Assembly: GCA_050747525.1 (NCBI GenBank)
Contig: JBOGOC010000097.1
Location: 74,209 to 138,208 of the forward strand
Length of the DNA: 64,000 nucleotides
From: Candidatus Polarisedimenticolia bacterium
GTDB taxonomy: Bacteria > Acidobacteriota > Polarisedimenticolia > JACPZX01 > DASXTC01
Reading direction: 5' to 3'
In this document: one piece after another, positions 21,474 through 40,704 of the stretch
Numbering within the stretch: the first letter of the stretch is position 1
Layout: every line of letters starts with the position of its first letter
The notes under the pieces: model-generated
What the model was told of the DNA's origin: nothing
The model's database searches: none
What the model saw: the letters and a program-made list of their open reading frames with translations, nothing else
Position numbers and translations under genes: made by a program

Positions 21474-23177
21474 ATGCGGAAACCGCTGCGGCTGTGGCCG
21501 GGCGTGGTCATTGTCGTGCTGCAGTTGCTGATCCGGTTCGGTCTTCCCGTTATCGCGCCCGACGTGGGGGGGTTCGCCCCGCTGAGCGGACCGATCGGCG
21601 CGCTGGCCATCGTCGTCTGGTGGGTGTTCTTCAGCAGAGCCCACTGGTCCGAGCGCGTGGGCGCGTTCTTCCTGATAGTCGCCGCGTTGGCCGCAACACC
21701 GTACATCCTCCACGAATCGGTCCGATCCGGAAACATGGGGATCCAGTTCTTCATTTATGCCCCTGCGGTCTTGAGCCTCGGCTTCGTCGCATGGGCGGTG
21801 GTCATCCGTGACCTCCCTGACCGACTTCGGCGCGCGACGATGGTCGCGACCATCTTGCTCGCGTGCGGCGGGTTTGCGCTTTTCCGGAACGACGGCCTCA
21901 GCGGCGAGGGCGCTCCGGATTTCGCCTGGCGCTGGGCCGAGACGACCGAGGAGCGGCTCCTGGCGCGAGCCGGCGACGAGCCGACGGTGCTCCCCTCGGC
22001 GCCGGCGGCAGCGGAGACGGAAGCTGCGTGGCCCGGCTTTCGCGGGCCCGATCGCGACGGCAGCGTCCGCGGCCTGCAGATCGCGACCGACTGGTCCGCG
22101 TCGCCGCCGGTCGAGCTGTGGCGCCGGCCGATCGGACCAGGCGTCTCGTCGTTCGCGGTCCGCGGCGACCTCCTCTACACGCAGGAGCAGCGCGGCGACG
22201 ACGAAATCGTTGCCAGCTACCGCGTGACGACCGGCGAGCCGGTGTGGAGGCATCGCGATCCGGTCCGGTTCTGGGACTCACACGTCGGCGCCGGTCCGCG
22301 CGGGACGCCGGCATGCGGCGGCGGCCGCGTCTATACGCTCGGTGCGACGGGAATCGTGAACGCGCTCGACGCCGCCGACGGCACCGTGGTGTGGTCGCGC
22401 AACGCCGCGTCTGACTCCAACAGGAAAGTACCGGAGTTCGGCTTCACGAGCTCGCCATTGCTGGTCGACGACGTCGTCATCGTCGCCGTTGCCGGCCAGC
22501 TCCTCGCCTACAACACCGCCACCGGCGATCTTCGCTGGTCCGGCCCGAAGCACGGCGACAGTTTCAGCTCACCTCACCTGTTGACGATCGACGGGGTCGC
22601 ACAGGTCCTGCTCCTAAGCGGCGCAGGGGCCACGAGCGTCGCGCCTGCCGACGGCTCGCTTATCTGGGAGTATACGTGGCCGGGCGACAGCTACTTGCAG
22701 CCGGCCTTGACCGCGGACGGCGATCTGCTGATCGGCGCGATCGAGTTGATGCCGAGCGGCATGCTCCGCCTCTCGGTGGCGCGCGGCCCCGGCGGCTGGG
22801 CCGTCGAGGAACTCTGGAGCTCCAGGGGGTTGAAACCGCATTTCAGCGACTTCGTCGTTCACAAAGGCCACGTCTACGGCTTCGACGGCAACATCCTCGC
22901 GTGCATCGGCGTCGAGAACGGCGAGCGCAAGTGGAAGGGCGGACACTACGGTCAGGGCCAGCTCGTGCTGCTGACCGACCAGGACCTGCTGCTGGTGGTG
23001 TCCGAGGGAGGGGATCTGGTTCTCGTCGCGGCCACTGCCGACGGGTTCAAGGAGCTCGCGCGGTTCCCGGCGATCGAGGGCAGGACCTGGAACCACCCGG
23101 CGCTTGTCGGCGACGTCCTGCTGGTTCGCAACGGCCAGGAGATGGCGGCGTTCCGGCTGCCGCTCGCGGGCGGATGA
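21474..23177 (+). CDS. PQQ-like beta-propeller repeat protein with N-terminal 4-TM domain (BamB-like fold)
   Basis: Start taken at MRKPLRLWPG. Four N-terminal TM helices. Then repeats of the WxxxxGxxxxSSPxxxDGxVY type (LWRRPIGPGVSSFAVRGDLLYT, VWRHRDP..., VVWSRNA..., LRWSGPKHGDSFSSPHLLT, LIWEYTWPGDSYLQPALTADGDLL, RKWKGGHYGQGQLVLLTDQDLL). Confidence 0.7.
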   Translation: MRKPLRLWPGVVIVVLQLLIRFGLPVIAPDVGGFAPLSGPIGALAIVVWWVFFSRAHWSERVGAFFLIVAALAATPYILHESVRSGNMGIQFFIYAPAVLSLGFVAWAVVIRDLPDRLRRATMVATILLACGGFALFRNDGLSGEGAPDFAWRWAETTEERLLARAGDEPTVLPSAPAAAETEAAWPGFRGPDRDGSVRGLQIATDWSASPPVELWRRPIGPGVSSFAVRGDLLYTQEQRGDDEIVASYRVTTGEPVWRHRDPVRFWDSHVGAGPRGTPACGGGRVYTLGATGIVNALDAADGTVVWSRNAASDSNRKVPEFGFTSSPLLVDDVVIVAVAGQLLAYNTATGDLRWSGPKHGDSFSSPHLLTIDGVAQVLLLSGAGATSVAPADGSLIWEYTWPGDSYLQPALTADGDLLIGAIELMPSGMLRLSVARGPGGWAVEELWSSRGLKPHFSDFVVHKGHVYGFDGNILACIGVENGERKWKGGHYGQGQLVLLTDQDLLLVVSEGGDLVLVAATADGFKELARFPAIEGRTWNHPALVGDVLLVRNGQEMAAFRLPLAGG

Positions 23178-23375
23178 TCTGAATTCTCGGCACGCTATGC
23201 CCACCTTCAGCCGGATCATCTACGGCGCGCGGTAACGGCGCTCGATCGGAAGCTCAACTCGTCGAACGAACGCAGCGCATCAAGGAAGACGGGGGAGTGA
23301 GGATCGAGATGGACACTCGGGCCTCAATCCCCTCCTACCTCAACCATCCCACCGTCGCGCAAGTGATTGAATCCA

Positions 23376-23432
23376 TGGTGCCGGGGGTGGGAATCGAACC
23401 CACATGCCGCTTGCGCGGCAGGGGATTTTAAG
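23376..23432 (-). repeat. direct repeat A: 3' half of a tRNA-Leu(UAA) (anticodon loop to CCA); att-site-like fragment
   Basis: Reverse-complement reads cttaaaa|tcccc|tgccgcgcaagcggcat|gtggg ttcgatt cccac|ccccggc|a|cca. That is anticodon loop, stem 3' strand, class-II variable-arm hairpin, T arm, acceptor 3' strand and CCA. It is near-identical to the 3' half of the intact tRNA at 50967-51055. T-stem differences are compensatory (gtggg/cccac versus gcggg/cccgc). Confidence 0.6.
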
Positions 23433-23556
23433 ACGAAACGGGGAGGGCAATGGAATCAGTAAGTTACTAACTCGTTGCCCTTTCCCGTTTCCGAGGGTTA
23501 CGGGGAGCGACCGTATTTTACGAGGGTTATGGACACCCTGATGGACACCTGTTTCA
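23433..23556. repeat. A/C-type flanking arm: 16-bp-stem hairpin plus short direct repeats
   Basis: About 93% identical to 35436-35574. It contains the hairpin gaaacggggagggcaa-[24 nt]-ttgccctttcccgtttc. It also contains two direct-repeat pairs, cgagggttaYgg (x2) and atggacacc (x2), laid out like integrase arm-type sites. Confidence 0.5.
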
Positions 23557-23822
23557 AGGGTGGGCCATCGGTTTCGGGCAACGAAGCGGGTGGGGGTGTG
23601 AGAGCTGGCCTCACCTGAAAACTGTCGGGTCTCGCGGATCGGCGCGCGGTGCCCGGGATGGTGGTGTCGATACAGACGTCCGGGGAGCTGGCGAACTGGC
23701 AGCCGCACCTGCACGCGAGAATTGTCAACCGCAAGGGCGTGTTCACCCCGCTGACGCTGCCCCCGGCGGCGCGCTGGATGGAAAACTTCACGCCGCCGAC
23801 GCAGCTTGACAGCTGACTTCGC

Positions 23823-24593
23823 TCAGCCGTAGCTGCGTCGGGCAATGGTCCTCAGGGCGCGGTAGCCCGCCCGCGCCCCCCGCGCCAGCAATGAAAGAGA
23901 AGAAGCCAATAGGGATGACATGTTCCCCGCGATGCGTTCAGAAACCGGGATCTGCCTGAGCAGTTCCTGCCTTACAAAAACCTGGTTGGGGAATAGCGAT
24001 CTCCACAGCCCATAGCCAACCGCCCGAAGCCGCACTTTGTAGCGATCCAGTCGTAGGAAGTTTTCGAGAATTATTACGTCAGGCCGATAGCGGGCGACGT
24101 CGAGACCTTCGAGCACATCGAGCTCCCACCCCTCAACATCGACCGACAGGACGCCAATGCGGTCCACACCTGCATCTTGCAGGATGCTATCGAGCCGCCG
24201 CACCCTGACCTTGATGAAGGTCTTGCCGCAGCTGGCTGGGAGGAGCTTGGCGTAGCCCTCTTTGATCCCGAGAGAGGAGAAGCTCTCGTAGGAGACAGCG
24301 CCACCTCTGTAGGGCTCTGAGTGCGAGTTGACCACGACGAATTCGACGCTGTCGCGGTCCTCCGTCCCGCATGCGCATTCGAAAATCTCGTGGCCCAGCT
24401 CCCGGTGCATGGCGGCGAATTCGGGATTGGGCTCGATCGCGATCACCCGCCAGCCCTTCTTGCGAAACAGCGCGCTGACCGACAGGTAATCCGGCCGAGC
24501 CGCACCTACATCGACGAATACGCGTTCCGTATTTCCGTCGTCGAAGAACCTCGAGAACACCTTCCGATCAACGTCACCTTCGGCGCGGTTCAT
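23823..24593 (-). CDS. FkbM-family SAM-dependent methyltransferase
   Basis: Methyltransf_21 hallmarks: VFVDVGAARPDYLSV...VIAIEPNPE...LSVDVEGWELDVLEGL. Confidence 0.7.
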   Translation of the reverse strand: MNRAEGDVDRKVFSRFFDDGNTERVFVDVGAARPDYLSVSALFRKKGWRVIAIEPNPEFAAMHRELGHEIFECACGTEDRDSVEFVVVNSHSEPYRGGAVSYESFSSLGIKEGYAKLLPASCGKTFIKVRVRRLDSILQDAGVDRIGVLSVDVEGWELDVLEGLDVARYRPDVIILENFLRLDRYKVRLRAVGYGLWRSLFPNQVFVRQELLRQIPVSERIAGNMSSLLASSLSLLARGARAGYRALRTIARRSYG

Positions 24594-24953
24594 GAAACCT
24601 CCATTCCATTACATCCTATCACGCCAGCGGAGAGGCAGGCAGACCCCCCACATGTTCGCACCGGCGACCGTCAACTGTTGTGGAGCGAGTCTTCGGCGAG
24701 CTTGGGGTCCTGTGGCTGCGGACTCTGCGTGTGGGGCCACCTGCGTGAGCCTTGATGTGAAACCAGTCTGCATGGACTGATCAGCGCCAACGAATGAACT
24801 TTGATGAATCTATCGTGGTTCGCGTAATACTCCCCTTGGCTTGACGCAGGGCGCGGTGAGTCAGTTGCCGGCTCGTGGTCGCGTGGTACGAGTCGGCGAA
24901 CCAGAGGCCCTTGAAGATGTGTGCCCGCTCGGACCCGGATTCGGAGAGCTCAG

Positions 24954-25229
24954 ATGAGCACCTCGGGGTTGATCCACTTCATGGCAGGGGCCCTCGGCTT
25001 TCTGGCCCTTGCGGTGAGCTGCCTCGTGGTTGCGGTGGCGATGTTGCGGCGAGGGAACCCCTGGATGGCGTGCCTGTCCTTCTTCTCCGGGGCTTCGGTC
25101 TTGGGCGGGTTCTTCGCTCCAGCCATGATTCCCGCCTCGGGACCCGTAGCGGGCATCTGGTTCAGCGTCCTCGTCGGGTGGACCTGGCTGGCTCTCACGT
25201 CCGCGCATCTATACCGGGCGGCGCGCTAG
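24954..25229 (+). CDS. small membrane protein (3 TM), function unknown
   Basis: Start at ATG 24954, preceded by GGAGAG. MSTSGLIHFMAGALGFLALAVSCLVVAVAMLRRGNPWMACLSFFSGASVLGGFFAPAMI... Confidence 0.4.
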   Translation: MSTSGLIHFMAGALGFLALAVSCLVVAVAMLRRGNPWMACLSFFSGASVLGGFFAPAMIPASGPVAGIWFSVLVGWTWLALTSAHLYRAAR

Positions 25230-25382
25230 AAGAGGGCCGCCCCAGGACTTCGCCAGATCGATCGCGATAGTCGTATAGTTGATGCCGGGGAAGGTGCGAG
25301 CGCGAAGGGACGGATGGGAATGTCGATTTCAGTACGGCCCGTTCGACTGAACGGTGAACCGTCCTGAAGGAGCGGCGCCATC

Positions 25383-26900
25383 ATGGATAGTCCGGGTCCT
25401 GGAGCTGCCAAGGCGACCAGCCGTGAGTGGGTTGGACTCGCGGTGCTTGCCCTCCCCTGCATTCTTTACTCCATGGACCTTACGGTGCTGAATCTCGCGG
25501 TGCCGAAGCTGAGCGCGGCCCTGCGCCCCACCAACACCGAGTTGCTGTGGATCGTAGACATCTACGGGTTCGTCCTGGCCGGCGCCCTGATACCCATGGG
25601 GGTGCTCGGTGATCGAATTGGGCGCCGTCGTCTGCTGATGGTCGGCGCCGCCGCATTCGGTTGCGCGTCCGTCCTGGCCGCGTACGCCCCGAGTGTCGCG
25701 GCTCTCGTAGGGGCTCGGGCCCTCCTTGGCATGGCCGCGGCCACGCTCGCTCCTTCGACCTTGTCTCTGCTTCGCAACATGTTCCTTGACCCGAAGGAAC
25801 GGACGTTCGCGATCGGAGTCTGGATCAGCAGCTTCTCGGCGGGGGGCGCCATCGGACCCCTGATCGGCGGGGCGCTGCTCCAGTTCTACTGGTGGGGCTC
25901 CGTGTTCCTGATCAACATTCCCGTCATGCTGCTGCTTCTCTCCGTGGGTCCAAGGCTGCTTCCCGAATTCCGTGATCCTCGGGCAAGCAAGCCGGACGTC
26001 CTGAGCGCAGCTCTGTGCATCGCCACGGTTCTTACGGTCATCTACGGGGTCAAACGCATCGCCGGGCATGGGGCGGATTGGATCGCCGTGGCGACGATCG
26101 TGCTGGGTCTGGCCATCGGCGCCGCCTTCGTGCGCCGGCAGCGACACCTCGCCGACCCCTTCATCGACCTCGGCCTGTTCCGGCGAGCGACGTTCAGCGT
26201 GGCACTTGGGATCAACATTCTGGGCTTCTTCATCGCGTTCGGCACCTTCCTTCTGATCGCACTCTACCTGCAGCTGGTGATCGGACTCTCGCCACTCGCA
26301 GCGGGTCTGTGGACGGCTCCCTCCGGCATGGCCTTCATCGTGGGTGCGATGCTCACGTCACGGATCGTGCGCCACCTGAAACCCGCTCATGTGATCGCGG
26401 CGGGATTCGTGATCGCCGCGCTTGGCCTGTCCCTGCTGACACAAACGGGTACGGCGCACGATCTTTCCGTGGTCGTCGCGGCGTACGCCGCGTTCTCACT
26501 GGGCCTGGCTCCGGTGTTCACGCTCGCATCCGATCTCATCTTGAGCACCGCTCCGCCTGAGCGTGCTGGAGCCGCGGCCGGGATTTCCGAGATGAGCACC
26601 GAGCTGGGAGGAGCCCTCGGCATTGCGCTGCTTGGCAGCGTGGCGACCTTCATCTATCGCCGAACGGTAGCAGGCGCGCTGGACGGCGAGCTGCCACGGA
26701 GTGTGCTTGATGCTGCGGGCGACTCGTTGGGAGGCGCTCTGGAAGCGGCGGGGGCGTTGCCGGGCGAGCTCGGCGCTGCTTTGGTCGCCGTCTCGCGGAG
26801 CGCCTTCGTTGACGCCTTCCAGGCGACCGCCCTGATTTCCGCTGCGATTGCTTTCGTGGCAGCGGCCGGAGCGGTGCGGGAATTTCGCGGAGCGTCCTGA
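25383..26900 (+). CDS. MFS transporter, DHA2 (14-TM drug:H+ antiporter, EmrB/QacA-like)
   Basis: 505 aa with 14 hydrophobic segments. Motif A GDRIGRRRLLMVG. Typical DHA2 N-terminal LAVLALPCILYSMDLTVLNLAVPKL. Confidence 0.75.
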   Translation: MDSPGPGAAKATSREWVGLAVLALPCILYSMDLTVLNLAVPKLSAALRPTNTELLWIVDIYGFVLAGALIPMGVLGDRIGRRRLLMVGAAAFGCASVLAAYAPSVAALVGARALLGMAAATLAPSTLSLLRNMFLDPKERTFAIGVWISSFSAGGAIGPLIGGALLQFYWWGSVFLINIPVMLLLLSVGPRLLPEFRDPRASKPDVLSAALCIATVLTVIYGVKRIAGHGADWIAVATIVLGLAIGAAFVRRQRHLADPFIDLGLFRRATFSVALGINILGFFIAFGTFLLIALYLQLVIGLSPLAAGLWTAPSGMAFIVGAMLTSRIVRHLKPAHVIAAGFVIAALGLSLLTQTGTAHDLSVVVAAYAAFSLGLAPVFTLASDLILSTAPPERAGAAAGISEMSTELGGALGIALLGSVATFIYRRTVAGALDGELPRSVLDAAGDSLGGALEAAGALPGELGAALVAVSRSAFVDAFQATALISAAIAFVAAAGAVREFRGAS

Positions 26901-26958
26901 AGGACTGGATTGACCTGGCGTTGATGCACAACGAGACCATTGCCCCGAGGAAGCAGAG

Positions 26959-27288
26959 ATGATTGCCCGTATCTGGCATGGCTGGACGACCCCTGGCAAC
27001 GCGGACAAGTATGAGTCGCTGCTCAACGAGGAGATCTTCGTCGGTATTCAGAATCGACACATTCCAGGGTTCAAGGGTATTCAACTGCTGCGGCGGGAGC
27101 TCGGCGAGGAAGTCGAGTTCGTCACGATCATGCTCTTCGATTCGCTGGATGCGGTCCGTGAGTTTGCCGGAGAGGATTACGCGGCAGCCGTTATTCCCAG
27201 GGAGGCGAGAGCGGTCCTGGCTCGCTTCGATGCGAGATCGCAGCATTATGAAATCAGGACGGAGAGAAGCAACGAGGCCACGAGGTGA
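26959..27288 (+). CDS. ABM (antibiotic-biosynthesis monooxygenase / Dabb) domain protein
   Basis: 109-aa alpha+beta barrel pattern (IARIWHGWT...FKGIQLLRRELGEEVEFVTIMLFDSLDAVREFAGEDY). Confidence 0.55.
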   Translation: MIARIWHGWTTPGNADKYESLLNEEIFVGIQNRHIPGFKGIQLLRRELGEEVEFVTIMLFDSLDAVREFAGEDYAAAVIPREARAVLARFDARSQHYEIRTERSNEATR

Positions 27289-27438
27289 CGGCAATGGTCC
27301 GATGGATCTGCCAGGATTCCTGCAGAAGACGTTCGATGCCGCGATACTCGAGAGCAACGAGGGCGGTCCCACGCTCCTGCAGATCGGAGACTCGCTCCTC
27401 TGGGTGGAGGCGGGCGAGCTGCCTTCTCATGTCACACC

Positions 27439-27660
27439 ATGGGTGGAAAGGCGACAATGGGACAAACGAGGCAGGAGAGGAACAAAGCACTGGTGCTTGA
27501 AGCCTTCGACGCGCTATTCAACAGGCGTGACTACACAGCGGCAGAGCGGTTCTGGTCGCCCGGCTACATCCAGCACAGTGCCCACATCGCACCTGGCCGC
27601 GAGGGGCTCTTCGACCTCGTCCGCAGCCTGCCGCCGACTAGCATCCGGGCGAGAAACGAT
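27439..27660 (+). pseudogene. SnoaL-like (NTF2-fold) cyclase/ester hydrolase, 3'-truncated
   Basis: RNKALVLEAFDALFNRRDYTAAERFWSPGYIQHSAHIAPGREGLFDLVRSLPPT matches SnoaL_2 N-terminal two-thirds. The frame then decays into Ala/Pro/Arg junk and overlaps the convergent DUF1801 gene. Confidence 0.4.
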
Positions 27661-27667
27661 CGGATCA

Positions 27668-28027
27668 TTACCCGCTGCGCCTGCGCGCCGCCTGCTTCAG
27701 GAGCGCCCCGTAGGCCCGTTCGTCGATGTCCGACGTCGCCCTCACTTTGATGTGCCGCACGAACCTTCCCTGTCCCTCGAGGAGCTTCTTCGGGTCCTTG
27801 AGCATGGAGCCCCGGAAGAAGCCGAGCTGCACGTACGTAGGTGCCGAGTAGACGTAGGCGACGGGTTCCTTGCCCTTCACCCAGCACCCGTTGCCCCACT
27901 TCACCGACTCATCCAGCGCGGGCGCCAGGCGCTTCACGAACCTGCGCAGAGCACGGATGATGGTCCGGTTCTTCGGCCGCTGGCCGGCGAGGTACGCGTC
28001 GAAGCTGTCGTAGCGCTTCATCTTCAT
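27668..28027 (-). CDS. DUF1801 (YdhG-like) domain protein
   Basis: Start taken at MKMKRYDSFDAYLAGQRPKNRTIIRALRRFVKRLAPALDESVKWGNGCWVKGKEPVAYVYSAPTYVQLGFFRG. The track's longer ORF (to 28084) reads through tRNA-like fragment F and is rejected. Confidence 0.55.
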   Translation of the reverse strand: MKMKRYDSFDAYLAGQRPKNRTIIRALRRFVKRLAPALDESVKWGNGCWVKGKEPVAYVYSAPTYVQLGFFRGSMLKDPKKLLEGQGRFVRHIKVRATSDIDERAYGALLKQAARRRSG

Positions 28028-28047
28028 GACGAGGCTCCGCTGCAGGA

Positions 28048-28102
28048 TGGTGCCGGGGCCGGGCGCGAACCCGGAGGGGCCCATGGCCCATAGGATTCTA
28101 AG
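28048..28102 (-). repeat. direct repeat F: degenerate tRNA-Leu 3'-half-like fragment
   Basis: Reverse-complement reads cttagaa|tcct|atgggccatgggcccc (palindromic variable-arm hairpin)|ccggg ttcgcgc cccgg|ccccggc a cca. It is followed at 28103-28110 by acgaaacg, shared with repeats A and C. Confidence 0.45.
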
Positions 28103-28147
28103 ACGAAACGTGAACTCCCGGACGCACAGATCGACGGGCTCCGCAGC

Positions 28148-28753
28148 TCAGGCCAGCAGACCGTCCACGGCCGCGTCGACGACCAAGCCGATCAGCCTGT
28201 CGCGGTCGGCCCAGGGGAAGGCAGGGCGAAGGATGAGGAGTGAGGTGATGCCGTGGACGGCCGCCCAGAGCGCCTGGCTTGCGGCATGGCCCTCCACGCG
28301 GCGGAACCGCTTGTCCTCCAGGCACCGCCGTACGAGGGATCGCAGACGCTCGGAGGCGACGTGGGGCTTGTCGGCGCTCTGCCTCGGGCGGCGCAGGAGG
28401 AACGCGAACTCGTAGACGCTCGGGTTGGCCACGCCGAACTCCACATAGGCGCGCCCAATCTTCCGCACCAGCTCGACCGGATCGCGGCCCCTGTCCGATT
28501 CGATCAGACTCCGCATGCTGTCGGCGAGCCGATCGAAGCTCTCCTCCACCAGACAGTCGAAGAGCGCCTCCTTGTCCTTGAAGTGCCGGTAGAGGTTGCT
28601 GTGCGAGCAGCCGATCCTCTCGGCGAGCTTGCGCATCGAGACCCCTTCGTAGCCGTCCCGGACGAAGGCCTCCCGGGCGGCATCGAGGATCTCCCGCCGG
28701 AGCACCTCCCGGTAGCGCTCGCGGGGGGTGGAAAGTTTCGCTTGACCACTCAT
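28148..28753 (-). CDS. TetR/AcrR-family transcriptional regulator
   Basis: N-terminal HTH (REAFVRDGYEGVSMRKLAERIGCSHSNLYRHFKDKEALF) and a C-terminal ligand-binding helical domain. Confidence 0.8.
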   Translation of the reverse strand: MSGQAKLSTPRERYREVLRREILDAAREAFVRDGYEGVSMRKLAERIGCSHSNLYRHFKDKEALFDCLVEESFDRLADSMRSLIESDRGRDPVELVRKIGRAYVEFGVANPSVYEFAFLLRRPRQSADKPHVASERLRSLVRRCLEDKRFRRVEGHAASQALWAAVHGITSLLILRPAFPWADRDRLIGLVVDAAVDGLLA

Positions 28754-28763
28754 GACCGACGGT

Positions 28764-28785
28764 TATAATACTGACCACCGGTCAG
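28764..28785. promoter_or_regulatory. TATAAT -10 hexamer abutting a 6-3-6 inverted repeat (ctgacc-acc-ggtcag): candidate TetR operator in the divergent promoter
   Basis: ggttataatactgaccaccggtcagaagcg lies in the 59-bp gap between the tetR start (28753, minus) and the Ntn-hydrolase-LRR start (28813, plus). Confidence 0.35.
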
Positions 28786-28812
28786 AAGCGCAAGCCCCAT
28801 GGGAGGTGTTCG

Positions 28813-30915
28813 ATGCTCCACCACCGTGCTCGCGTGATCCCGTCATCCGGCCTCGTCCTCTTACTCTTCGCCACCGGTTGTCTCTCCGCCGCCGGCGATG
28901 ACACAGTCGTCCAGCAGGACCGTGTCATTGCCGGCGGCCCCAACGACTCCCTGGAGGTCCGCCACATCGTCCTGCGAGGGACCAACGAGCAGATCGGACG
29001 CGCGCTGGCCGAGATCGCCAAGGAGCGCTACGGCGTCCGGCCCAATCCCGCCATGGATCCCCTGCAGATGCGCGCTCAGCGCCGTTACCTCGAGCGCAAT
29101 TACCCCATCCTCCTCGACCGCATGCGCGGCGTCGCGGCGGCGTACGGCAGATCGATCGAGGAGGACGGCTGGGACTTCACGACGCTCATGTTCACCGACC
29201 TGCGAGCCGGCTGCTCCGTCGCGCACCTGCCGCCGTCGTCGACTGCGAACGGCAAGAGCGTGGTGAGCCGCGACTACGACTTCACGACCGGCGCCCTCAA
29301 CTTCGGGTTCCTCGAGGAGGGGATGCTGCATCCGACCGCCCGCCCCTACCTGCTCGAGCTTCACCCCGATCGTGGGTACGCCTCCATCGCGATGGTCGCC
29401 TATGACCTCCTGAGCGGCGTGCTCGACGGCATCAACTCCGAAGGTCTTACCGTCACTCTGGCCTTGGACGACACGCTCGTTTCCAGCAACGCCACGGAGC
29501 CGACACGGGGCCCGGCCGTGGGCCTCCACGAGGTGCAGACGCTCCGCCTGCTCCTCGACACGTGCGCCACGGTGGAGGAGGCGAAGCAGACGCTGATGGC
29601 GACCAAGCAGTACTACCAGTACGTCCCCGTCCACTACCTGATCGCGGACCGCAGCGGCAAGGCCTTTGTCTGGGAATACTCCGAGTTTCACAACAAGGAG
29701 TACGTCATGGAGAGCCCGGGGCAGCCTCTGGTCATGACGAACTTCACGCTCCACAAGCAGCTCGAGGACGGCAAGCCCCCTTCGGCGGAAAAGGCGAGAG
29801 GCGTCTGCAAGCGCTACGCGTACCTGAGCGAGAAGCTCGCGGCCGGGAACCTCGACGACAAGGTCATCCGCGGTTTCCACCAGAACGTGGATGCGCAGAT
29901 GTCGCAGGCGGCCGACCCATCCAGCCCTCCGGAGCGCACCTTCTGGCACGCCTTCTACTATCCGGAGGAGCGCCGGGTGCGCCTGAGCTACTACCTCAAG
30001 GACGAGCCGTTCCCCGGAAACGAGCGCTTCGTACGCCCGGTCCGAACCGACTACCTGGATTTCCGGCTTGAGCCGACGGAGAGTGTGCCGGCGAAGGCGG
30101 AGACACGCTCGGGATCGGCAGCGCCCCCCGCCGCATCGCCGGCCCGCCCGGCACCCTTGGACGCGCAGGCGGCCGTCGAGGGGGCCGGCGTCGCGTCAGC
30201 CATCGAGGCCGCAGGTGGCGGCGTCGAGCTTAAGGGAAAGCGGGTCGTCGGCGTGAGCCTCGACAAGGCGACCAGGCTCGAGACCGTCATCCCGCTGCTC
30301 GGCCAGCTCTCCGACCTCGAATCGTTGAGCCTCGGAAACCCCTCCTTGACCGATGCCGATGTTCGCGCTCTCGAGGGGCTGCCCAAGCTCCGTACTCTCG
30401 GCTTCATGGGAGCGCCCATCGGTGACGCGGCGCTCGAGGTCATGAAGACCTTGCCTTCTCTGCGCCAACTGAACATCATCGGCACGAAGGTGACGGACGC
30501 CGGTCTCGTGCACCTGCAGGGCCTCACCGCGCTCGAATACCTCGGCCTCAAGGGCACCGCCATCACCGACGCCGGCCTCGCGCATCTCAAGAACCTCACC
30601 GGCCTCAACACCCTCAACCTCGCCGACACCAGAATCACCGGCGTCGGCCTCGTGCACCTCGCCGGCATGAGGCGCCTGGAGGGCGTGAACCTGTCGAACA
30701 ACAATGTGACCGACGCCGGTCTCGGACACCTGGGTCGAATGCCCGGCCTCGGCGGCCTCAACCTTGCAGGGACGAAGGTGACGGATGCCGGCCTCGTCCA
30801 CCTGAAGCAGCTCCCGAAGCTGACCAAGCTCAACGTGACGGGGACCGCGGTCACGGAGCAAGGCGTGAAGGACGCGAAGAAGTTCCTGCCCTTCTGGTGC
30901 ACGGTGACGCGGTAG
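28813..30915 (+). CDS. lipoprotein: Ntn-hydrolase (peptidase C45 / choloylglycine-hydrolase-like acyltransferase) fused to a C-terminal leucine-rich-repeat domain
   Basis: Lipobox LLLFATGCLS. Putative autoproteolytic G|C site (DLRAGCSVAHLP) and INSEGLTVTL as in the C45/C59 Ntn family. Ala/Pro-rich linker. Then about 12 LRRs of the LxxLxLxGTKVTDAGLVHLKGLTxL type. Confidence 0.6.
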   Translation: MLHHRARVIPSSGLVLLLFATGCLSAAGDDTVVQQDRVIAGGPNDSLEVRHIVLRGTNEQIGRALAEIAKERYGVRPNPAMDPLQMRAQRRYLERNYPILLDRMRGVAAAYGRSIEEDGWDFTTLMFTDLRAGCSVAHLPPSSTANGKSVVSRDYDFTTGALNFGFLEEGMLHPTARPYLLELHPDRGYASIAMVAYDLLSGVLDGINSEGLTVTLALDDTLVSSNATEPTRGPAVGLHEVQTLRLLLDTCATVEEAKQTLMATKQYYQYVPVHYLIADRSGKAFVWEYSEFHNKEYVMESPGQPLVMTNFTLHKQLEDGKPPSAEKARGVCKRYAYLSEKLAAGNLDDKVIRGFHQNVDAQMSQAADPSSPPERTFWHAFYYPEERRVRLSYYLKDEPFPGNERFVRPVRTDYLDFRLEPTESVPAKAETRSGSAAPPAASPARPAPLDAQAAVEGAGVASAIEAAGGGVELKGKRVVGVSLDKATRLETVIPLLGQLSDLESLSLGNPSLTDADVRALEGLPKLRTLGFMGAPIGDAALEVMKTLPSLRQLNIIGTKVTDAGLVHLQGLTALEYLGLKGTAITDAGLAHLKNLTGLNTLNLADTRITGVGLVHLAGMRRLEGVNLSNNNVTDAGLGHLGRMPGLGGLNLAGTKVTDAGLVHLKQLPKLTKLNVTGTAVTEQGVKDAKKFLPFWCTVTR

Positions 30916-31141
30916 GCCAGCAAGGTCGAGGCCGACATCAGCTTCTGAGCTCCGTAGTCCAGTTGAGGACTACGGCGCGGGAGGCGGCCGTTCCATGCAC
31001 TCAGCTTGGGGGGCGCGTGTCAACTCCGAAGCCTGAGGCGTGGACTCCAATTCGTAGGCAGGCCGCCGCCTGGGGCATCCGCATTTACCCGTTGTCTCCT
31101 CGCCCGCCGCGCGGTACGATACGGGACAGCTTGGAGTAGGC

Positions 31142-32581
31142 ATGGGGCGTTTCCACCGCGTGCTGCTCGTCTCGGTGGTGTTCACCGTGGCGGCCCGGCT
31201 CGCCTCGGCCGCATGTCCCCCCTTCGATCCCCCCTCGACCGTTGCCGTCGGCGATCATCCCAGTGATCTGGCCGCCGGGGACGTCAACGGCGACGGCTTC
31301 CCCGACCTGGTGGTCGCGAACGCGGATTCGGACAACGTGACCGTCCTTCTAGGCGACGGCGCGGGTTCGTTTACTGTGGGGCCTTGGACTCCCGTCCTCG
31401 ACGCCCCCCGAGCCGTCGTCCTCACGGACTTCAACGGTGACTCCCGGCTCGACCTCGCGGTCATCGGGGCCCGCGTGAACGATGTGAATTGTCAGACCTT
31501 CCTCGGCAATGGCAACGGCACGTTCACCTTGACCCAGAGTCTCGAGAGGAGCGTAGCCCTGGACATGGTGACCGGGGACTTCAACGGCGACGGCCACGTC
31601 GATATCGCAATCCTCGACTTCAATTCCGCGCCTCCCGACCCGCCGACCGGCGGATACGCGGTGATCTACCTGGGCAACGGCGACGGGACTGTCCGTTTCC
31701 GTGGACTGTATGCGACACCCTTGTTCGGCTTGATCGTCACGAGCGACTTCAACGGGGATGGACACCCGGACCTCGCGGTGCGGTCGTCAGGACGGGTAAC
31801 CGTTCTCCTCGGCGTGGGCGACGGGTCGTTCAGCACGATGACGGCTTATGTGGCTGCCGGGGACGGCGACGTCGCGGCTGGCGACCTCGACGGCGACGGG
31901 CGCATCGACCTCGTCGCGGCGGATCTGGCATCGGACGGCGTGTCGGTCCTTCTTGGAGTTGGGAACGGCGCGTTCGGCGCCGAGACCCGCTACCCGTCTG
32001 GGGACGGTCCTTCGGGGATCGCGGTGGTCGATCTCTTCGGCCGCGGCGTGCCGGACATCCTGACCGTGGATCGGAATGGCGATACCGTCTCGCTGCTGGG
32101 GAGCCACGGCGACGGTTCCGTGGGACCGCCCACGGAGTTTGCGGTCGGAGACTTCCCGGTGGCGATCTCGGTCGCGGACTTCGACCTGGACGGCCGCCTT
32201 GACGTCGCCGTCGCGAACTACAACGCCGACACCGTGTCGGTCCTGCTCGGCAAGAGAGCCGACCGGCCGTGGATCGGGTTCGAGACGCCGGAGACGATCG
32301 TGTGGCAAGCGGTCCCCGGCGCCGTCGCCTACAACGTGTATCGCGGAGCGCTCGCTGACCTCGTGGACCCGAACGCGGACGGGCTACCGGACGGGGGCTA
32401 CGGCGCCTGCTTCGACGATCACGATCCCGATCTGTCCGACACGTCGCTCGTCGATGCGGAGACGCCTTCCGCGGGCGCAGGCTTCTTCTACGTCGCGAGC
32501 GTCGTCGGATCGAGCGGCGATCAGGGGATCGGCCTGACGAGCGCGTGCCTCCCTCGGGCACCGTCTTCCGTTTGTCCCTAG
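31142..32581 (+). CDS. secreted FG-GAP / VCBS repeat (integrin-alpha-like beta-propeller) protein
   Basis: Signal peptide. Seven repeats of the D(F/L)NGDGxxDL(A/V)V type (DVNGDGFPDLVVAN, DFNGDSRLDLAVI, DFNGDGHVDIAIL, DFNGDGHPDLAVR, DLDGDGRIDLVAA, DLFGRGVPDILTV, DFDLDGRLDVAVAN). Confidence 0.75.
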   Translation: MGRFHRVLLVSVVFTVAARLASAACPPFDPPSTVAVGDHPSDLAAGDVNGDGFPDLVVANADSDNVTVLLGDGAGSFTVGPWTPVLDAPRAVVLTDFNGDSRLDLAVIGARVNDVNCQTFLGNGNGTFTLTQSLERSVALDMVTGDFNGDGHVDIAILDFNSAPPDPPTGGYAVIYLGNGDGTVRFRGLYATPLFGLIVTSDFNGDGHPDLAVRSSGRVTVLLGVGDGSFSTMTAYVAAGDGDVAAGDLDGDGRIDLVAADLASDGVSVLLGVGNGAFGAETRYPSGDGPSGIAVVDLFGRGVPDILTVDRNGDTVSLLGSHGDGSVGPPTEFAVGDFPVAISVADFDLDGRLDVAVANYNADTVSVLLGKRADRPWIGFETPETIVWQAVPGAVAYNVYRGALADLVDPNADGLPDGGYGACFDDHDPDLSDTSLVDAETPSAGAGFFYVASVVGSSGDQGIGLTSACLPRAPSSVCP

Positions 32582-32715
32582 ACGGTTGAACCGGCGCCAC
32601 CAAGCAGCCATCGAAATCATGGGCGCTGATCTGGTGTGGTGAATATCACCGAAATTGAGTGCGACGTTTTTGCCGGAGGGCGTTATAGGCCGCGAGCCAG
32701 CGGAAGAACGCCAAA

Positions 32716-32771
32716 TGGTGCCGGGGCTGGGACTCGAACCCAGATGAGCCAAAGGCCCAGGGGATTTTAAG
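32716..32771 (-). repeat. direct repeat B: tRNA-Leu 3'-half-like fragment (divergent variable and T arms)
   Basis: Reverse-complement reads cttaaaa|tcccc|tgggcctttggctcat (hairpin gggcc/ggctc)|ctggg ttcgagt cccag|ccccggc a cca. It has the same anticodon-loop boundary as the other repeats. Confidence 0.55.
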
Positions 32772-32865
32772 ATGTCAGCCTGCCCCGGACGCATAGATCT
32801 CCATCAGACCTGATCGTAGCCCATCCCTCTATCGGCGCGTACTTCTGAACGTCTCCAGTCTGCAT

Positions 32866-32945
32866 GAAGTTCGATTCGTTGTCGGTCAGCGCGATGGAAC
32901 CCGACAAGTTGGTTACAAGCTGCCGGAGCCCCTCCCGATCTTCCG
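32866..32945. repeat. B/D-type flanking arm block (about 75 nt conserved, includes gtcgg...ccgac hairpin)
   Basis: ttgtcggtcagcgcgatggaacccgacaagttggttacaagctg...gatcttccgg aligns with 37338-37412 (tggtcggtcagcccgatgggacccgacaagttgcgtacaagtgg...gatcttccgg). Both lie about 90 nt from the fragment boundary. Confidence 0.4.
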
Positions 32946-33204
32946 GGGGAGCCCCCGCCGGGGATTTCTTATCCTTAACCTCGCGTCAGAACAGAAAGAG
33001 AGACGCAGCCGTCGGACGGCTTTTTCATTAGTCGCCGGAACCGGCCCAAATATAGGGCGGTTGCCATTGGCCCAACCACCCGAGGGAGGCTCCGCTCCCA
33101 CCGGTTTTCTGCATGACACCCTGCCTCCGGGCCGTGTTAGAGGATCAGCGTGAGCGCACGCAGGCCCTGGAGCGCGAGATTGGCCAGATCTGGTGAAGTG
33201 CCAG

Positions 33205-34632
33205 TCAGGATTCGATGACCGCTTTGACGCGCTTCTCTCTGATCGCTTTCACGAACGCCTTGTGATCGCGCTCGGCCTGATCGGCATAGTCGCCCGCAAA
33301 GTCGCAGATCGCCTCGTCAAAGGTGCGGCCGGAACCCATGTAGCCCGAGATCATGGCGGCGTCGCCCGAGCGCGCATGGGCTTGGGCCAGCGCCCACGCG
33401 CACGCGTCCGCATATTGTCGCAATAGTTGGGCGTCCATGCTCTCAACGTCAGCCGAGATCTTCATGTCGCGGAGCTGGCGCACGTAGAAGTGGCGCCCGA
33501 GGTGTCCCTGCGTCCACCCCAGGAAGATGTCGCTCGCCGCTTGCATCAGACGCTGGCCGACGACGACGCGCTGGCCGTGGTTGCCGTGAAGACTCCTCCC
33601 GGCATGAGGCTCAAGCACGGACGCGTTCGCCTGCTTGATCTGCAGGAACAGCGGGTCGTCATCGGCGGCCATGTAGAGCGCGACCAGGCACGCGGTACCG
33701 ACGCTGCCCACGCCGACGACCTTCAGCGCCATGTCGCAAAGATGAAAGCGGTCGAAGAGCACGCGGATCTGCTCGGGCAGAGATTCGCGGTAGAACGCCC
33801 ACGCTGCCTTGATTTCCTTGCTGCCCTCGTATTTCTTGAGCAGGGGGTGGTGGAAGATGAGCGGCGGGTTGTCCTTGATGCGCGGAGTGGAGCCATCGTA
33901 CTCGGCCAGCTTTGGGAAATCGTGCTCGGCGGCAGTGCGCGCGCGCGCCTTCTCCAGTGTTGTCTCCATACGCGCGCGCTCCTTTTCGTCCGGCACCGAA
34001 TCGACCAGGCGCTGGATGTCGATTCTGTCGTACCAGATGTCCAGCGCCTTCATGAAGGAATACTCCGCAATGTGTTCCCGGTACGAGCGCACCGCGGCGC
34101 GGGCGGCGCGCGCCGACTCGGTCTGCTTGAGCTGGATGTGGCGCCCGGCCAGGACCACGCTGGCGGTCAAGCGCTTGAGGTCCCATTCCCATGGAGCAGG
34201 AAGCGTTTCGTCCAGGTCATTGACGTCGAAGATCACGCCGCGCTCGGGCGTGGCAAAGACGCCGAAGTTCGAGAGGTGGGCGTCACCGCAGGCCTGCACC
34301 CTGAGGCCGGAGCTTGGGGTGTGAGCCAGGTCGGCGGCCATGATCGCGGCGGACCCGCGATAAAAGGCGAAGGGCGACCGAGACATCCGACCGTGGCGAA
34401 TCGGCAGAAGCTCCTGCAGCCTGCCCTCGTTCGCCGCGAGGACAATCTCGACCGGATCACGCCGGTCCTTGGGCGGCTTCCATCCGCTATGCTCCTCGCG
34501 GGGCACAGAGTCGCGCAGCGCCCTGCCCTCAGCCCGGCGCTCGGCCCGAGGGCGAAGCGGCGCCACGCTGGGCGCCTTGGAGTCACGATTCGTCCCAACG
34601 GCTCGGAGCCGCTCCTTCGCCTGGGTCTTCAT
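33205..34632 (-). CDS. DUF2252 family protein
   Basis: 475 aa. Conserved DUF2252 N-terminal block ERRAEGRALRDSVPREEHSGWKPPKDRRDPVEIVLAANEGRLQELLPIRHGRMSRSPFAFYRGSAAIMAADLA, collinear to the end. Confidence 0.6.
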   Translation of the reverse strand: MKTQAKERLRAVGTNRDSKAPSVAPLRPRAERRAEGRALRDSVPREEHSGWKPPKDRRDPVEIVLAANEGRLQELLPIRHGRMSRSPFAFYRGSAAIMAADLAHTPSSGLRVQACGDAHLSNFGVFATPERGVIFDVNDLDETLPAPWEWDLKRLTASVVLAGRHIQLKQTESARAARAAVRSYREHIAEYSFMKALDIWYDRIDIQRLVDSVPDEKERARMETTLEKARARTAAEHDFPKLAEYDGSTPRIKDNPPLIFHHPLLKKYEGSKEIKAAWAFYRESLPEQIRVLFDRFHLCDMALKVVGVGSVGTACLVALYMAADDDPLFLQIKQANASVLEPHAGRSLHGNHGQRVVVGQRLMQAASDIFLGWTQGHLGRHFYVRQLRDMKISADVESMDAQLLRQYADACAWALAQAHARSGDAAMISGYMGSGRTFDEAICDFAGDYADQAERDHKAFVKAIREKRVKAVIES

Positions 34633-34892
34633 GCCTTGCCTCCCGGCTGCGTCGGCTCTGAGTGACGACGGAATCTTCCGGCTTGCTGGCCACTGCCGGT
34701 GGCGACGGTCTCAACTCCACGAGCACCCGACGCCCGGGGGGTAGTCGACACAATGGCCGGTCGTTTCACCCGTTTTCCCTCAACGGAGCTTAGTGGACGG
34801 CAACCCCAATTGCACGGCTGGGCGGGCGGTGTCAACCAAGGCCGGGCGACCACCGTCGCGCCCTGGACTTCCTCGCACTCAGCGAGGCCCTG

Positions 34893-35310
34893 ATGCGGGA
34901 CTTCAAGCACCAGAGGAGGATCCCCGTGAGGTTCGTGCTCGTCTCGGCCATCGCTGTTCTGGCTGCCGCGATGAATGCCTTTGCCCGTGTGGGCCCGCCG
35001 GGCCTGGAGCCGGCGGGAAAGCATTACCAGGCCGCACGAGGAGCCATCACGAAGGGCGACAAGGACGAGGCAATCCTCGAGCTGAGGCCCGCGCTGCAGG
35101 ACAATTCTCTCGATGCCTCGTCGCACCACCTGCTGGGCTGCCTGCTGGCGCAGCAGGGTGAGGAAGAGCAGTCCATCGGTGGCGTTTCACCACGCGCAGG
35201 CCATCGATCCCACCCCATCCGGAGGTGCTCCCTTCCGCGCCCGCCGGCAGGTGACACCGCCGCTCTCCAAGGGCATCGGGGCCCGCACGGTCCTCCTTTC
35301 GCAAGTCTGA
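34893..35310 (+). pseudogene. TPR-like repeat gene disrupted by a frameshift near 35175
   Basis: Frame A: ...KHYQAARGAITKGDKDEAILELRPALQDNSLDASSHHLLGCLLAQQGEEEQSI. The TPR consensus then continues in frame B (AFHHAQAIDPT...) of track ORF 35113..35310. It lies directly next to repeat C. Confidence 0.4.
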
Positions 35311-35381
35311 AGGACCAAGGCAGATGGACACTTGGCCCTCCAACCTCGACGATCCCACCATCGCGCAACTCATTGATCACA

Positions 35382-35435
35382 TGGTGCCGGGGCTGGGACT
35401 CGAACCCAGATGGCCTTGCGGCGGGAGATTTTAAG
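35382..35435 (-). repeat. direct repeat C: tRNA-Leu 3'-half-like fragment
   Basis: Reverse-complement reads cttaaaa|tctcc|cgccgcaaggccat|ctggg ttcgagt cccag|ccccggc a cca. Confidence 0.55.
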
Positions 35436-35574
35436 GCGAAACGGGAAGGGCAATGAAATCAGTAAGTTACTAACTCGTTGCCCTCTCCCGTTTACGAGGG
35501 TTACGGGGAGCGACCGCATTTTACGAGGGTTATGGACACCCAGATGGACACCTGAGCCGGCCATGGCTGGTCTC
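35436..35574. repeat. A/C-type flanking arm (second copy)
   Basis: Same hairpin (gaaacgggaagggcaa...ttgccctctcccgttta) and the same direct repeats (cgagggttacgg / cgagggttatgg; atggacacc x2) as at 23433-23556. Confidence 0.5.
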
Positions 35575-35697
35575 GGACCGACCTGGTCGTCATGCGTCAT
35601 CTCTATGATCTCGAGCGCGTCCCGTGGCATGAACTCCCAGGCTCCGGTTGATGTCGCGCCCCTCTGTAAGGGGCCGGCCCCGACAGCGACTAACGAG

Positions 35698-36216
35698 ATG
35701 GACGAAGCGGACATGAAGCCAGCGGGCGAGGAACAAGAGTTCCTGGAGGTCCTGAACCGCTACCAGCCCGTCCTCCGGCGTGTATCCCGGATGTACGCGG
35801 ACAGTCCCGAGGAGCGTGAAGACCTGCTTCAGGAGACGATCTACCAGCTGTGGAGAAGCTATCCGACGTTTCGGGGTGAATCCTCGCACGGCACGTGGGT
35901 CTACCGCGTGGCGCTCAACACGGCCATCAGCGCCCTGCGACGAAGGGTGAAGCGGCCCAAGGAGGTGCCACTCGAAGCGGCGGCCCAACTTGGGACACCG
36001 CCTGGCCCATGGGGCTCCGAATCCGAGAGGGTCCGCCTGTTGTACGGGATGATCCAGAAGCTGAATCCGGTGGACCGCGCGCTGGCGCTGCTCTACCTGG
36101 AGGATCTGAGCTACAAGGAGCTGTCGAGCATTCTCGGGATCTCGGAGAGCAACATCGGCGTGAAGCTGAACCGGCTGAAGGCCAAGCTCCAGAGCTTCGC
36201 GAAGGAGCTGCGATGA
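35698..36216 (+). CDS. ECF sigma factor (sigma-70 family)
   Basis: Start taken at MDEADMKPAG. Region 2 (LLQETIYQLWRSYPTFRGESSHGTWVYRVALNTAISALR) and region 4 HTH (LYLEDLSYKELSSILGISESNIGVKLNRLKAKL). The track's upstream extension reads through repeat C and is rejected. Confidence 0.7.
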   Translation: MDEADMKPAGEEQEFLEVLNRYQPVLRRVSRMYADSPEEREDLLQETIYQLWRSYPTFRGESSHGTWVYRVALNTAISALRRRVKRPKEVPLEAAAQLGTPPGPWGSESERVRLLYGMIQKLNPVDRALALLYLEDLSYKELSSILGISESNIGVKLNRLKAKLQSFAKELR

Positions 36217-36812
36217 CCGACCTGGACGCACTGAAAAGGATTTGGCGGGAGTCAACCTGCCCTCCCGACTTGGATCCCCTCGGTAAGGAGGAGCTCATGG
36301 CGATGATTCAAACCCGAGCGGCCGACATCAAGCAAAGGACGATGGACCGAGTGCGGGTGGAGAGCTACAACTATCTTGCCCTTGTGCTGATCCCAGCCCT
36401 GCTGCTGCTTTTCAGCCAGGGCCAGACCATGCGGGCGCTTCTCGGAGTCGTCGGCCTGCTCGCGGCGCTCGGGCCGATCCTCGCAGCGCTCGCGTACAAG
36501 GAATACCGGCTCAGCAGCCTTCCCCTGGGTGGCACGTTGAAGGGATCGCTGGAATCAATGCTCGCGGCTGTCGACTCTACCTCGAGCCTCTACATGACCA
36601 CGTACATGCTCTGCGTGACCCTCGCGGTCGCGGTGGGCGAAGGGATTCTCGCCTGGCGCTACGGCGTGCACTGGATCCCGATGATCGCACTCGTCGCCGG
36701 CATCGCCTTCGTGGTCTGGGCTTATCGCAGCGGCCAGGGTTACCTTCGCGGGATGTTCGGATCGATTCGGCGGGAGTTGGCCGACTGCCTGCGAGAGCTC
36801 GAACAAGCCTAG
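36213..36812 (+). CDS. membrane protein cotranslated with the ECF sigma factor (putative anti-sigma or partner)
   Basis: ATGA overlap with the sigma stop (MTDLDALKRIWRE...). Cytoplasmic N-terminal segment, then 4 TM helices. No zinc-finger motif. Confidence 0.5.
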   Translation: MTDLDALKRIWRESTCPPDLDPLGKEELMAMIQTRAADIKQRTMDRVRVESYNYLALVLIPALLLLFSQGQTMRALLGVVGLLAALGPILAALAYKEYRLSSLPLGGTLKGSLESMLAAVDSTSSLYMTTYMLCVTLAVAVGEGILAWRYGVHWIPMIALVAGIAFVVWAYRSGQGYLRGMFGSIRRELADCLRELEQA

Positions 36813-37192
36813 AGGAGGGGCTGGCATTGGAAAAAGTGACCATTCGCTATTGCTTCGTCTGACCCATCAAACAATCGATGGCGGCCAGTCTGGCTGCCCG
36901 GCTCAGAAACGAATGCGCCGCACAAGTGGAGACCATCCGGGGAGGGTTGGGAGAGTTCACCGTCCTCGTGGGCGACGAAGAGGTGGTGAGCACAAGCCGC
37001 CTCTGGTACCCCGACCTCGCCGAGACATTCCGGGCGGTTCAGACGCGCGTCCGGAATGAGCGCTGAAGGCATGCAGCCCGTAGGACGATGGCGCTGAACT
37101 GCGAGATAGCTGGTCCGGCGTGACGACGGCGGATTCGTCGGGCATGTTGAAGGACCTCAACCATCCCACCTGCACGGAACTCTCTGAAAACA

Positions 37193-37249
37193 TGGTGCCG
37201 GGGGCGGGATTCGAACCCGCAAGAGCCTTCCGGCTCCGGAGATTTTAAG
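37193..37249 (-). repeat. direct repeat D: tRNA-Leu 3'-half-like fragment
   Basis: Reverse-complement reads cttaaaa|tctcc|ggagccggaaggctcttg (hairpin gagcc/ggctc)|cgggg? ttcgaat cccgc|ccccggc a cca. The B/D-type arm block lies at 37338-37412. Confidence 0.55.
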
Positions 37250-40697: not shown

Positions 40698-40704
40698 GCC
40701 GGCC

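Follow-up and report, generated by a model that had tools for sequence, protein, structure and literature searches.

Cis-mobilizable elements (CIMEs), which form by accretion with ICEs or IMEs, are bounded by attachment (att) sites, carry no integrase or transfer genes, stand in tandem at a tRNA-type site, and are thought to be moved by the integrase of a related element. In the genomic islands of the Islander set, the insert restores the tRNA gene and a displaced fragment marks its far end; 2083 of 3919 islands had anticodon-centred sites, and 4 of 3919 were in arrays of three or more, which need an integrase for each unit (PMC4383910). The ssrA islands of Dehalococcoides, tandem and tDNA-targeted, are another close system (PMC3146451). 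Tycheposons of Prochlorococcus are cargo elements at a few tRNA genes, with several partial tRNAs and degenerate remnants (bioRxiv 10.1101/2020.12.28.424599). Island stacking at tRNA genes is known, and is usually explained unit by unit, each with its own integrase. What appears new in the 64-kb stretch analysed here (the window; contig JBOGOC010000097.1 of a Candidatus Polarisedimenticolia bacterium) is a lineage-wide set of integrase-less cassettes with a conserved 119-nt arm at tRNA-Leu(UAA); the units were very small, and no recombinase was seen.

The flank in question, the A/C arm, adjoins two tRNA-Leu 3′ fragments of the window (A and C). It is probably the element-side att arm of small cassettes without integrase that insert site-specifically into the anticodon loop of tRNA-Leu(UAA). 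Directly observed were the array geometry, the precise junction, an arm that recurs, cargo that has been shuffled from one array to another and, in everything examined, a lack of integrase genes. As in tDNA island arrays, the insert would regenerate the tRNA, 3′ fragments in direct orientation stood at the unit ends, the crossover would be in the anticodon loop and older inserts would be pushed outward. The intact tRNA was accompanied by five cognate, co-oriented fragments, as in Islander islands, but the tyrosine integrase of each island was not found in the ORFs scanned. Compared with Islander arrays, there were five units, no integrase, units down to 1-3 kb with one or two cargo genes, and a 119-nt arm shared across genomes. 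Tycheposons are alike in being cargo elements at a tRNA gene with partial tRNA copies from repeated integration, but they are defined by a recombinase that each carries itself (tyrosine or large serine type), frequently along with replication genes; none was found here, and the host (Acidobacteriota) and target (tRNA-Leu UAA) differ. The integrase-less, att-bounded and stacked units are shared with CIMEs: the units lay between fragment junctions and held non-mobility cargo. They differ from CIMEs in that no cognate integrase-bearing element was seen near any array, and the present cassettes were much smaller and more numerous.

ARAGORN detected one tRNA gene in the window, an intact tRNA-Leu(UAA) on the minus strand (50967-51055), which anchors the array and has its insertion point in the anticodon loop CTTAAAA. 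Five tRNA-Leu 3′ fragments were located on the same strand at lower coordinates: fragment A (23376-23432), the closest copy to the intact gene (ident 94.7%); the degenerate fragment F (28048-28102, or 28048-28110 with the arm start ACGAAACG); fragment B (32716-32771); fragment C (35382-35435); and fragment D (37193-37249). Each consisted of tRNA positions 32-76, from the anticodon loop to CCA, and tRNA similarity stopped at TAAG. Read on the plus strand, fragments A, B, C, and D stopped at GATTTTAAG, and F had the variant GATTCTAAG; GATTTTAAG was observed 5 times in the window against 0.05 expected by chance. An nhmmer profile built from all fragments found six copies in the 64 kb (the tRNA and the five fragments) and no further tRNA-Leu-like copy. 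The break of all fragments, as well as of 14 in other loci, was at GATTTTAAG in the anticodon loop, which corresponds to sublocation class A of PMC4383910.

The T stems of the fragments differed by paired changes, being GTGGG/CCCAC in A, CTGGG/CCCAG in B and C, and GCGGG/CCCGC in D and the tRNA. The variable arms were also unlike each other, yet self-complementary. Because of these paired changes and self-complementary arms, the sequences indicate that the fragments derive from different working tRNA-Leu(UAA) genes and not from duplication of one copy; such differences are expected if each fragment once served as a working 3′ half. Fragment A is most simply read as the original, displaced 3′ half and is likely the oldest, because it is closest to the present tRNA and stands at the far end of the array. 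A group I intron remnant or a split tRNA was ruled out, the break being before position 32 and not inside the anticodon, with one 5′ half only.

A seventh tRNA-Leu(UAA)-like 3′ fragment (CTTAAGATCC...CCCCGGCACCA) was observed elsewhere on this contig, some 7.6 kb to the left of the first base of the window (L024, 1299-1354). Its orientation was opposite to that of the array, no A/C arm was alongside, and ARAGORN found no intact tRNA there. Short plus-strand open reading frames (ORFs) at 23309-23431, 35324-35434, and 37132-37248 started in the low-side tails described below and ran antisense through fragments A, C, and D to a stop at TAA, the tRNA anticodon, and their peptides were alike (LNHPTVAQVIE/LDDPTIAQLID). 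These ORFs were rejected as coding, with no Pfam match and with A/C differences mostly at first codon positions; since the nucleotide differences had no third-position bias, the conservation of these stretches was treated as probably DNA-level.

The A/C arm was 119 nt long in both window copies, extending from 23433 to 23551 in copy A, where it ended at ACCTG, and from 35436 to 35554 in copy C (94.9% identity to copy A). The first-pass annotation had reported a conserved high-side flank shared by fragments A and C, and this was recovered at 93% identity over 137 nt (23415-23551 and 35418-35554, part of the fragment included) and by BLAST at 94.9% over 118 nt; the region was placed correctly, but the C copy ended at about 35554 and not at 35574. 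The 16-bp hairpin with a 24-nt spacer described there was also located and folded. In copy A, its halves were GAAACGGGGAGGGCAA (23435-23450) and TTGCCCTTTCCCGTTT (23475-23490), with one bulged base; the minimum free energy of the whole flank was -47 kcal/mol (about -46 to -47 on either strand), and the fold had z-scores of -2.6 (plus strand) and -4.4 (minus strand, which is tRNA-sense). Both pairs of direct repeats that had been noted were present. The first, CGAGGGTTAYGG, occurred in copy A as CGAGGGTTACGG (23492-23503) and CGAGGGTTATGG (23521-23532), 29 nt apart from start to start with a 17-nt gap, and not 22 nt as first given. The second, ATGGACACC, was found at 23529-23537 and 23541-23549, with a third near-copy, ATGGACACT, at 23309 within the low-side tail; the C junction had counterparts of all three, at 35324, 35532, and 35544. 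Fragment F kept ACGAAACG after TAAG, as had been claimed, and the rest of its flank was weakly B-like (CCCGGACGCACAGATC). A hidden Markov model (HMM) of the arm found the two junction copies and no others in the 64-kb window, and no promoter-like or terminator-like site was found in 23200-23700.

Just past arm A, a 52-aa ORF (23658-23816, plus strand) read VVSIQTSGELANWQPHLHARIV, which may resemble the conserved motif in the HUH region of Y2 transposases (IS91 family); it had no Pfam match at E ≤ 1.

Fragments B and D, whose junction is of the same kind, were flanked by another conserved sequence, probably a further arm family with greater divergence between its copies. Copy B extended from 32772 to 32945 (conserved block 32809-32919) and copy D from 37250 to 37454 (conserved block 37286-37396). 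The separate B/D block with GTCGG-N15-CCGAC in the earlier description held up: the two blocks aligned ungapped over 111 nt in the same register with 71% identity, the 40-nt core with this motif (32872-32911 in B, 37349-37388 in D) reached 90%, and the alignment score had a z of 13.9 against shuffles. Global alignment of A/C with B/D arms was no better than shuffles (z 0.2-2.1), and the two were therefore rejected as diverged homologues; GATGGnACC occurred in both, but at offsets about 13 nt apart, and no claim was based on it.

On the low side, a tail common to A, C, and D, CCTCRACSATCCCACC-N21-ATGGTGCC, was found as previously described. The tail of junction A (23309-23375) had ATGGACACT at 23309 and CCTCAACCATCCCACC at 23338-23353, and showed a looser likeness to the related loci L013 and L015; that of junction C (35324-35381) had ATGGACACT at 35324 and contained CCTCGACGATCCCACC; and that of junction D (37150-37192) contained CCTCAACCATCCCACC. 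A genome scan with the tail pattern gave 0 matches.

Related loci were retrieved by two scans. A metagenome scan with the junction as query (T loop ... GATTTTAAGRCGAAACG) returned nine loci, and a genome scan with two invariant blocks of the arm returned six. In total, 16 arm copies were available, 14 of them outside the window in about 12 contigs, mostly of Polarisedimenticolia/Acidobacteriota. Four of the six genome-scan loci were labelled Polarisedimenticolia or Acidobacteriota, and the other two were labelled Acidimicrobiia (L020) and Nitrospirales (L022). Because the tRNA-Leu of L020 was 98.9% identical to that of the window, mis-binning of these two contigs seems more likely than cross-phylum spread.

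Every full-length arm copy stood directly after the TAAG of a tRNA-Leu(UAA) 3′ fragment, with fragments that varied by locus, and similarity between arms ended within a few bases of ACCTG in all copies. Two loci, L018 and L020, showed an intact tRNA-Leu(UAA), then cargo (1.3 and 2.6 kb), then arm and fragment, in the predicted order and orientation; L017 had three arms in 2.7 kb. The mean pairwise identity was 92% in the distal ~100 nt of the arm, 76% in the crossover-adjacent 21 nt, the least conserved part, and 80% in the fragments. Protein-coding cargo common to loci had about 90% identity, below the distal arm, and arms within one genome were about as diverged as arms across genomes. Since conservation of the arm exceeds that of the coding cargo accompanying it, and arms differ about as much within as between genomes, these comparisons favour continuing selection on the arm over recent copying or neutral decay. 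The A/C arm had no match in phage and plasmid collections or IMG/VR (viral scans with four arm patterns, 0). The expectation that the arms would not belong to a known insertion sequence (IS), miniature inverted-repeat transposable element (MITE) or Rfam family, and would recur elsewhere, was borne out for the A/C arm, which was present in about 12 further contigs and in each case at this junction.

Damaged arm copies were found in L011, L012, and L020 (the last two truncated), and those of L013 and L015 were interrupted by an IS110-like gene. In L011 (12-63), the copy lacked the whole hairpin, and the deletion endpoints lay in two ACGGGGAG repeats, as would be expected from slippage or recombination between them. 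The IS110-family-like gene (N-terminus MEEHTREGSGLTIGVDLGDRYSQLCVL) was located about 100 nt after the arm break (L013 11195-11358, L015 12134-12346), and was assigned to this family from motif reading, not from a Pfam scan. The arm was broken at one identical point in both loci (TACGAG|GGTTATGG), which suggests that the insertion sequence may target the A/C arm itself. In this, the insertion is reminiscent of IS1111 elements, which target the attC sites of integrons.

Pfam scans of the sizeable window ORFs and of the 15 related loci gave no Phage_integrase match. A crude scan of six-frame translations (317 kb) revealed no box II motif of tyrosine recombinases, and no recombinase was present within 10 kb past either window edge on the same contig. 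Nor was an integrase-bearing helper element seen in the window, the 10 kb beyond each edge or the 15 related loci (not whole genomes). Three consecutive ORFs of about 410 aa in L017, considered as a recombinase trio, were ruled out, as they were MacB/FtsX and HlyD.

The units between junctions were 0.9-14 kb in size, and the overall cargo classes were toxin-antitoxin, defence, efflux, kinase, and regulator genes, facing both toward and away from the arm (both strands). In the window, the A-F interval contained genes for an FkbM methyltransferase, an MFS transporter and a DUF1801 protein; the F-B interval, a TetR regulator, an acyltransferase/leucine-rich repeat protein and an FG-GAP protein; and the B-C interval, DUF2252 and a 166-aa ORF. 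The C-D interval contained an ECF sigma factor, a 305-aa ORF without Pfam match (199 aa as called in L001), and a 62-aa ORF; with the A/C arm, the tail and fragment D, these made up the smallest complete unit of the window (1.8 kb, 35436-37249). The D-tRNA interval contained an RND efflux operon, a superoxide dismutase, an EamA transporter and an ABC transporter. The cargo of the related loci included Ser/Thr kinases, an FAD monooxygenase, MacB/HlyD and RND efflux, BlaR with a beta-lactamase, Hen1, a TOTE-type primase-helicase and the toxin-antitoxin pairs Phd/ParE, PIN, and DUF433/DUF5615. IS110-like and IS256-type genes were also present in the arrays. The genes 5′ of the tRNA were BlaI/BlaR-like in the window, CAAX protease/CdsA in L018 and a DEAD helicase in L020.

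Five direct repeats of about 41 nt, spaced about 150 nt apart (31279-32216), were observed inside the FG-GAP repeat gene (31142-32581); they are protein repeats and unrelated. The TOTE-type gene encoded an 832-aa protein with the archaeo-eukaryotic primase domain of the 'TOTE conflict system' and a helicase, and three contigs had it directly against a tRNA-Leu fragment, on that fragment's tail side (L013 8464-10959, L015 9403-11898, and L020 4455-6953). It formed a 3.4-kb unit with Phd/ParE in L020 and was next to DUF433/DUF5615 in L013; a protein scan with it gave 0 matches.

Homologous cargo was found in different surroundings. The RND cargo of the window (37455-43781) had about 90% identity to L012 and L021, and the homology started sharply at 37455-37457; the shared stretch corresponded to 37455-43812 in the window, 173-6495 in L012 and 2371-8000 in L021, including a small His-rich ORF upstream. 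It was preceded by the B/D arm in the window, by a fragment with an intact A/C arm in L021 and by a remnant of the A/C arm in L012. At the far end, L012 had its own fragment and arm after AcrB, and the window continued into further genes. The RND unit was about 6.5 kb between fragment-arm junctions in the two metagenome or metagenome-assembled genome (MAG) contigs. Likewise, L008 and L009 had kinase cargo, tail, and fragment in common (95%) next to different arms, and L011 and L022 had the tail in common (97.6%). Homologous cargo modules thus occur in more than one array setting, and fragment-arm junctions mark where the modules end.

In the proposed mechanism, a circular cassette would consist of the arm, the crossover TTTTAAG, and its own tRNA-Leu 3′ half followed by the short tail. 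Insertion would join the 3′ half of the cassette to the chromosomal 5′ half, so that the tRNA stays intact, and the previous 3′ half would be pushed outward with the newcomer's arm before it. Read on the tRNA strand, five rounds would produce the order tRNA, cassette, arm, fragment D, cassette, arm, fragment C, and so on to fragment A, and a unit would comprise its own tRNA 3′ half (in the intact gene or the next fragment), tail, cargo, and arm. The arm would be the element-derived (P-type) arm of each attR-like junction. In a lambda-type attP, short repeats in the arms are bound by the recombinase and by accessory proteins. Judging from their dense layout, the two CGAGGGTTAYGG repeats, the two ATGGACACC repeats with one in the tail, and the 16-bp inverted repeat may be binding sites for a recombinase and accessory proteins. 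The recombinase may be a tyrosine integrase that is encoded elsewhere and acts in trans, and the arms would be under selection because the sites are still used. A trans-encoded enzyme is the most economical mechanism, because no recombinase was found in any of the roughly 20 units, some of which span just 0.9-1.8 kb. Accordingly revised, the first-pass view of att arms stands as far as element-derived arms at a recombination core are concerned, whereas its arm-type integrase sites rest on the layout of the repeats, no integrase having been found. Two arm families were likewise upheld, but not two conventional element families, the units being small integrase-less cassettes.

Several observations weigh against this mechanism. 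No recombinase was found, and the enzyme and its binding to the repeats are what we infer; the relatives are MAG and metagenome contigs of 1-12.5 kb, so that an integrase may lie further along an array. No excised circle, empty site or polymorphic array was seen, and the sole second assembly of this organism (L002) was identical where it overlapped. The synteny test yielded no empty site: homologues (75-85% identity) of the PQQ-propeller gene left of fragment A were in unrelated contexts with no tRNA, and no uninserted locus was shown, because synteny on this left side does not extend to the relatives. No copy of the B/D arm was found beyond the window, a result that covers the contexts of DUF2252 homologues and not the genome and metagenome collections, which were not scanned with the B/D pattern (GTCGGTCAGCNCGATGGNACCCGACAAGTTG); those homologues were in other contexts with no fragment or arm, and the homology comprised the gene only. 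The tails were not all of one type, the shared type being limited to A, C, D, and L013/L015, and this makes a single two-armed attP less convincing. Finally, one cargo was found behind different arm families, which needs recombination steps beyond the simple model.

The main rival explanation is that the junctions are inert scars of ordinary integrase-carrying islands or prophages at tRNA-Leu that have lost their integrase and mobility genes, with arms that are functionless and conserved by close kinship. The lack of an integrase anywhere examined would agree with it, as would the degenerate fragment F, the lost hairpin of L011, the truncated copies of L020 and L012 and the IS110-interrupted copies of L013/L015; degenerated elements and scattered partial tRNAs are also known from tycheposon islands (bioRxiv 10.1101/2020.12.28.424599). 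We nevertheless consider it unlikely. At least 20 units were examined and none had even an integrase fragment, while units of 0.9-1.8 kb kept intact arms and intact cargo. The distal arm (92%) was more conserved than co-travelling coding DNA (about 90%) and fragments (80%), and arm divergence within genomes equalled that between genomes, which argues for long-term constraint over recent copying. Random decay would also hardly produce the sharp outer boundary that all copies share at ACCTG. If the arm were instead a transposable-element end (MITE or IS), or a homology patch for RecA-type cassette swapping after DNA uptake, a repeated non-coding unit of about 120 nt with an internal inverted repeat would be explained; direct-repeat arrays permit RecA-mediated deletion and exchange, cargo stood behind different arms, and IS110-like and IS256-type genes were present in the arrays. 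This is very improbable, however, as the arm had no terminal inverted repeats, no target duplications and no match to phage, plasmid or IMG/VR sequences, and it was not dispersed: the HMM found two junction copies in 64 kb, and elsewhere all full-length copies were at tRNA-Leu fragments. Homologous recombination, for its part, cannot make the precise TAAG junction with differing tRNA halves and just reshuffles units.

The predicted hairpin raised the further question of a cis-acting RNA or transcription element (small RNA, stabilising hairpin, terminator or insulator), for which the position at tRNA fragments would be secondary. The fold was strong in copy A (z = -4.4 on the tRNA-sense strand), and sequence conservation was high along the whole 100 nt, loop included. 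Yet none of the 23 stem pairs showed a compensatory change among the 16 copies, and several copies broke the outer stem on one side only. The core-proximal half of the hairpin was variable and its partner half fixed; because one half varies without compensation, the alignment indicates that the hairpin is an inverted repeat at the DNA level, not a fold under selection. Moreover, no relevant Rfam match was obtained at E ≤ 1 (22500-38500), the vicinity of arm A was free of promoter-like and terminator-like sites, and neighbouring genes were in both orientations. A role as RNA element, which would also leave unexplained the exact start of every full-length copy at the anticodon-loop break, was considered most improbable.

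Taken further, the site-specific cassette mechanism would give an integron-like system anchored in a tRNA gene, in which a site of about 180 nt (the 119-nt arm plus the tRNA-Leu 3′ half) is used by a single trans-acting recombinase to capture, stack, and release cassettes; this extension is tentative, and we regard it as possible rather than probable. In outline, integrons are alike in their fixed insertion point, small cassettes mostly of one to three genes that are rich in toxin-antitoxin and defence functions, one site per cassette and no recombinase in the cassette. They differ in that no intI-like gene was by the insertion point here; the genes 5′ of the tRNA varied among the window, L018, and L020, and none was a recombinase. 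The integron attC site is a conserved fold, whereas the arm is a conserved sequence (92%) without compensatory pairing. In addition, the insertion point here is in an essential tRNA gene that each cassette must repair, and the cargo was on both strands.

The hosts of these arrays are Acidobacteriota of sediment and soil that have received little study. With inactive sites, the arrays would preserve the history of serial integration at a single tRNA gene with unusual clarity. If the sites are active, they would represent a second route to integron-like cassette capture, with the safeguard that each cassette must repair an essential tRNA, and the arm would be a sequence handle for locating cassettes and the recombinase in metagenomes. 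Should the integron-like reading be true, Polarisedimenticolia would share, across the lineage, a pool of exchangeable genes for defence, toxin-antitoxin, efflux, and regulatory functions.

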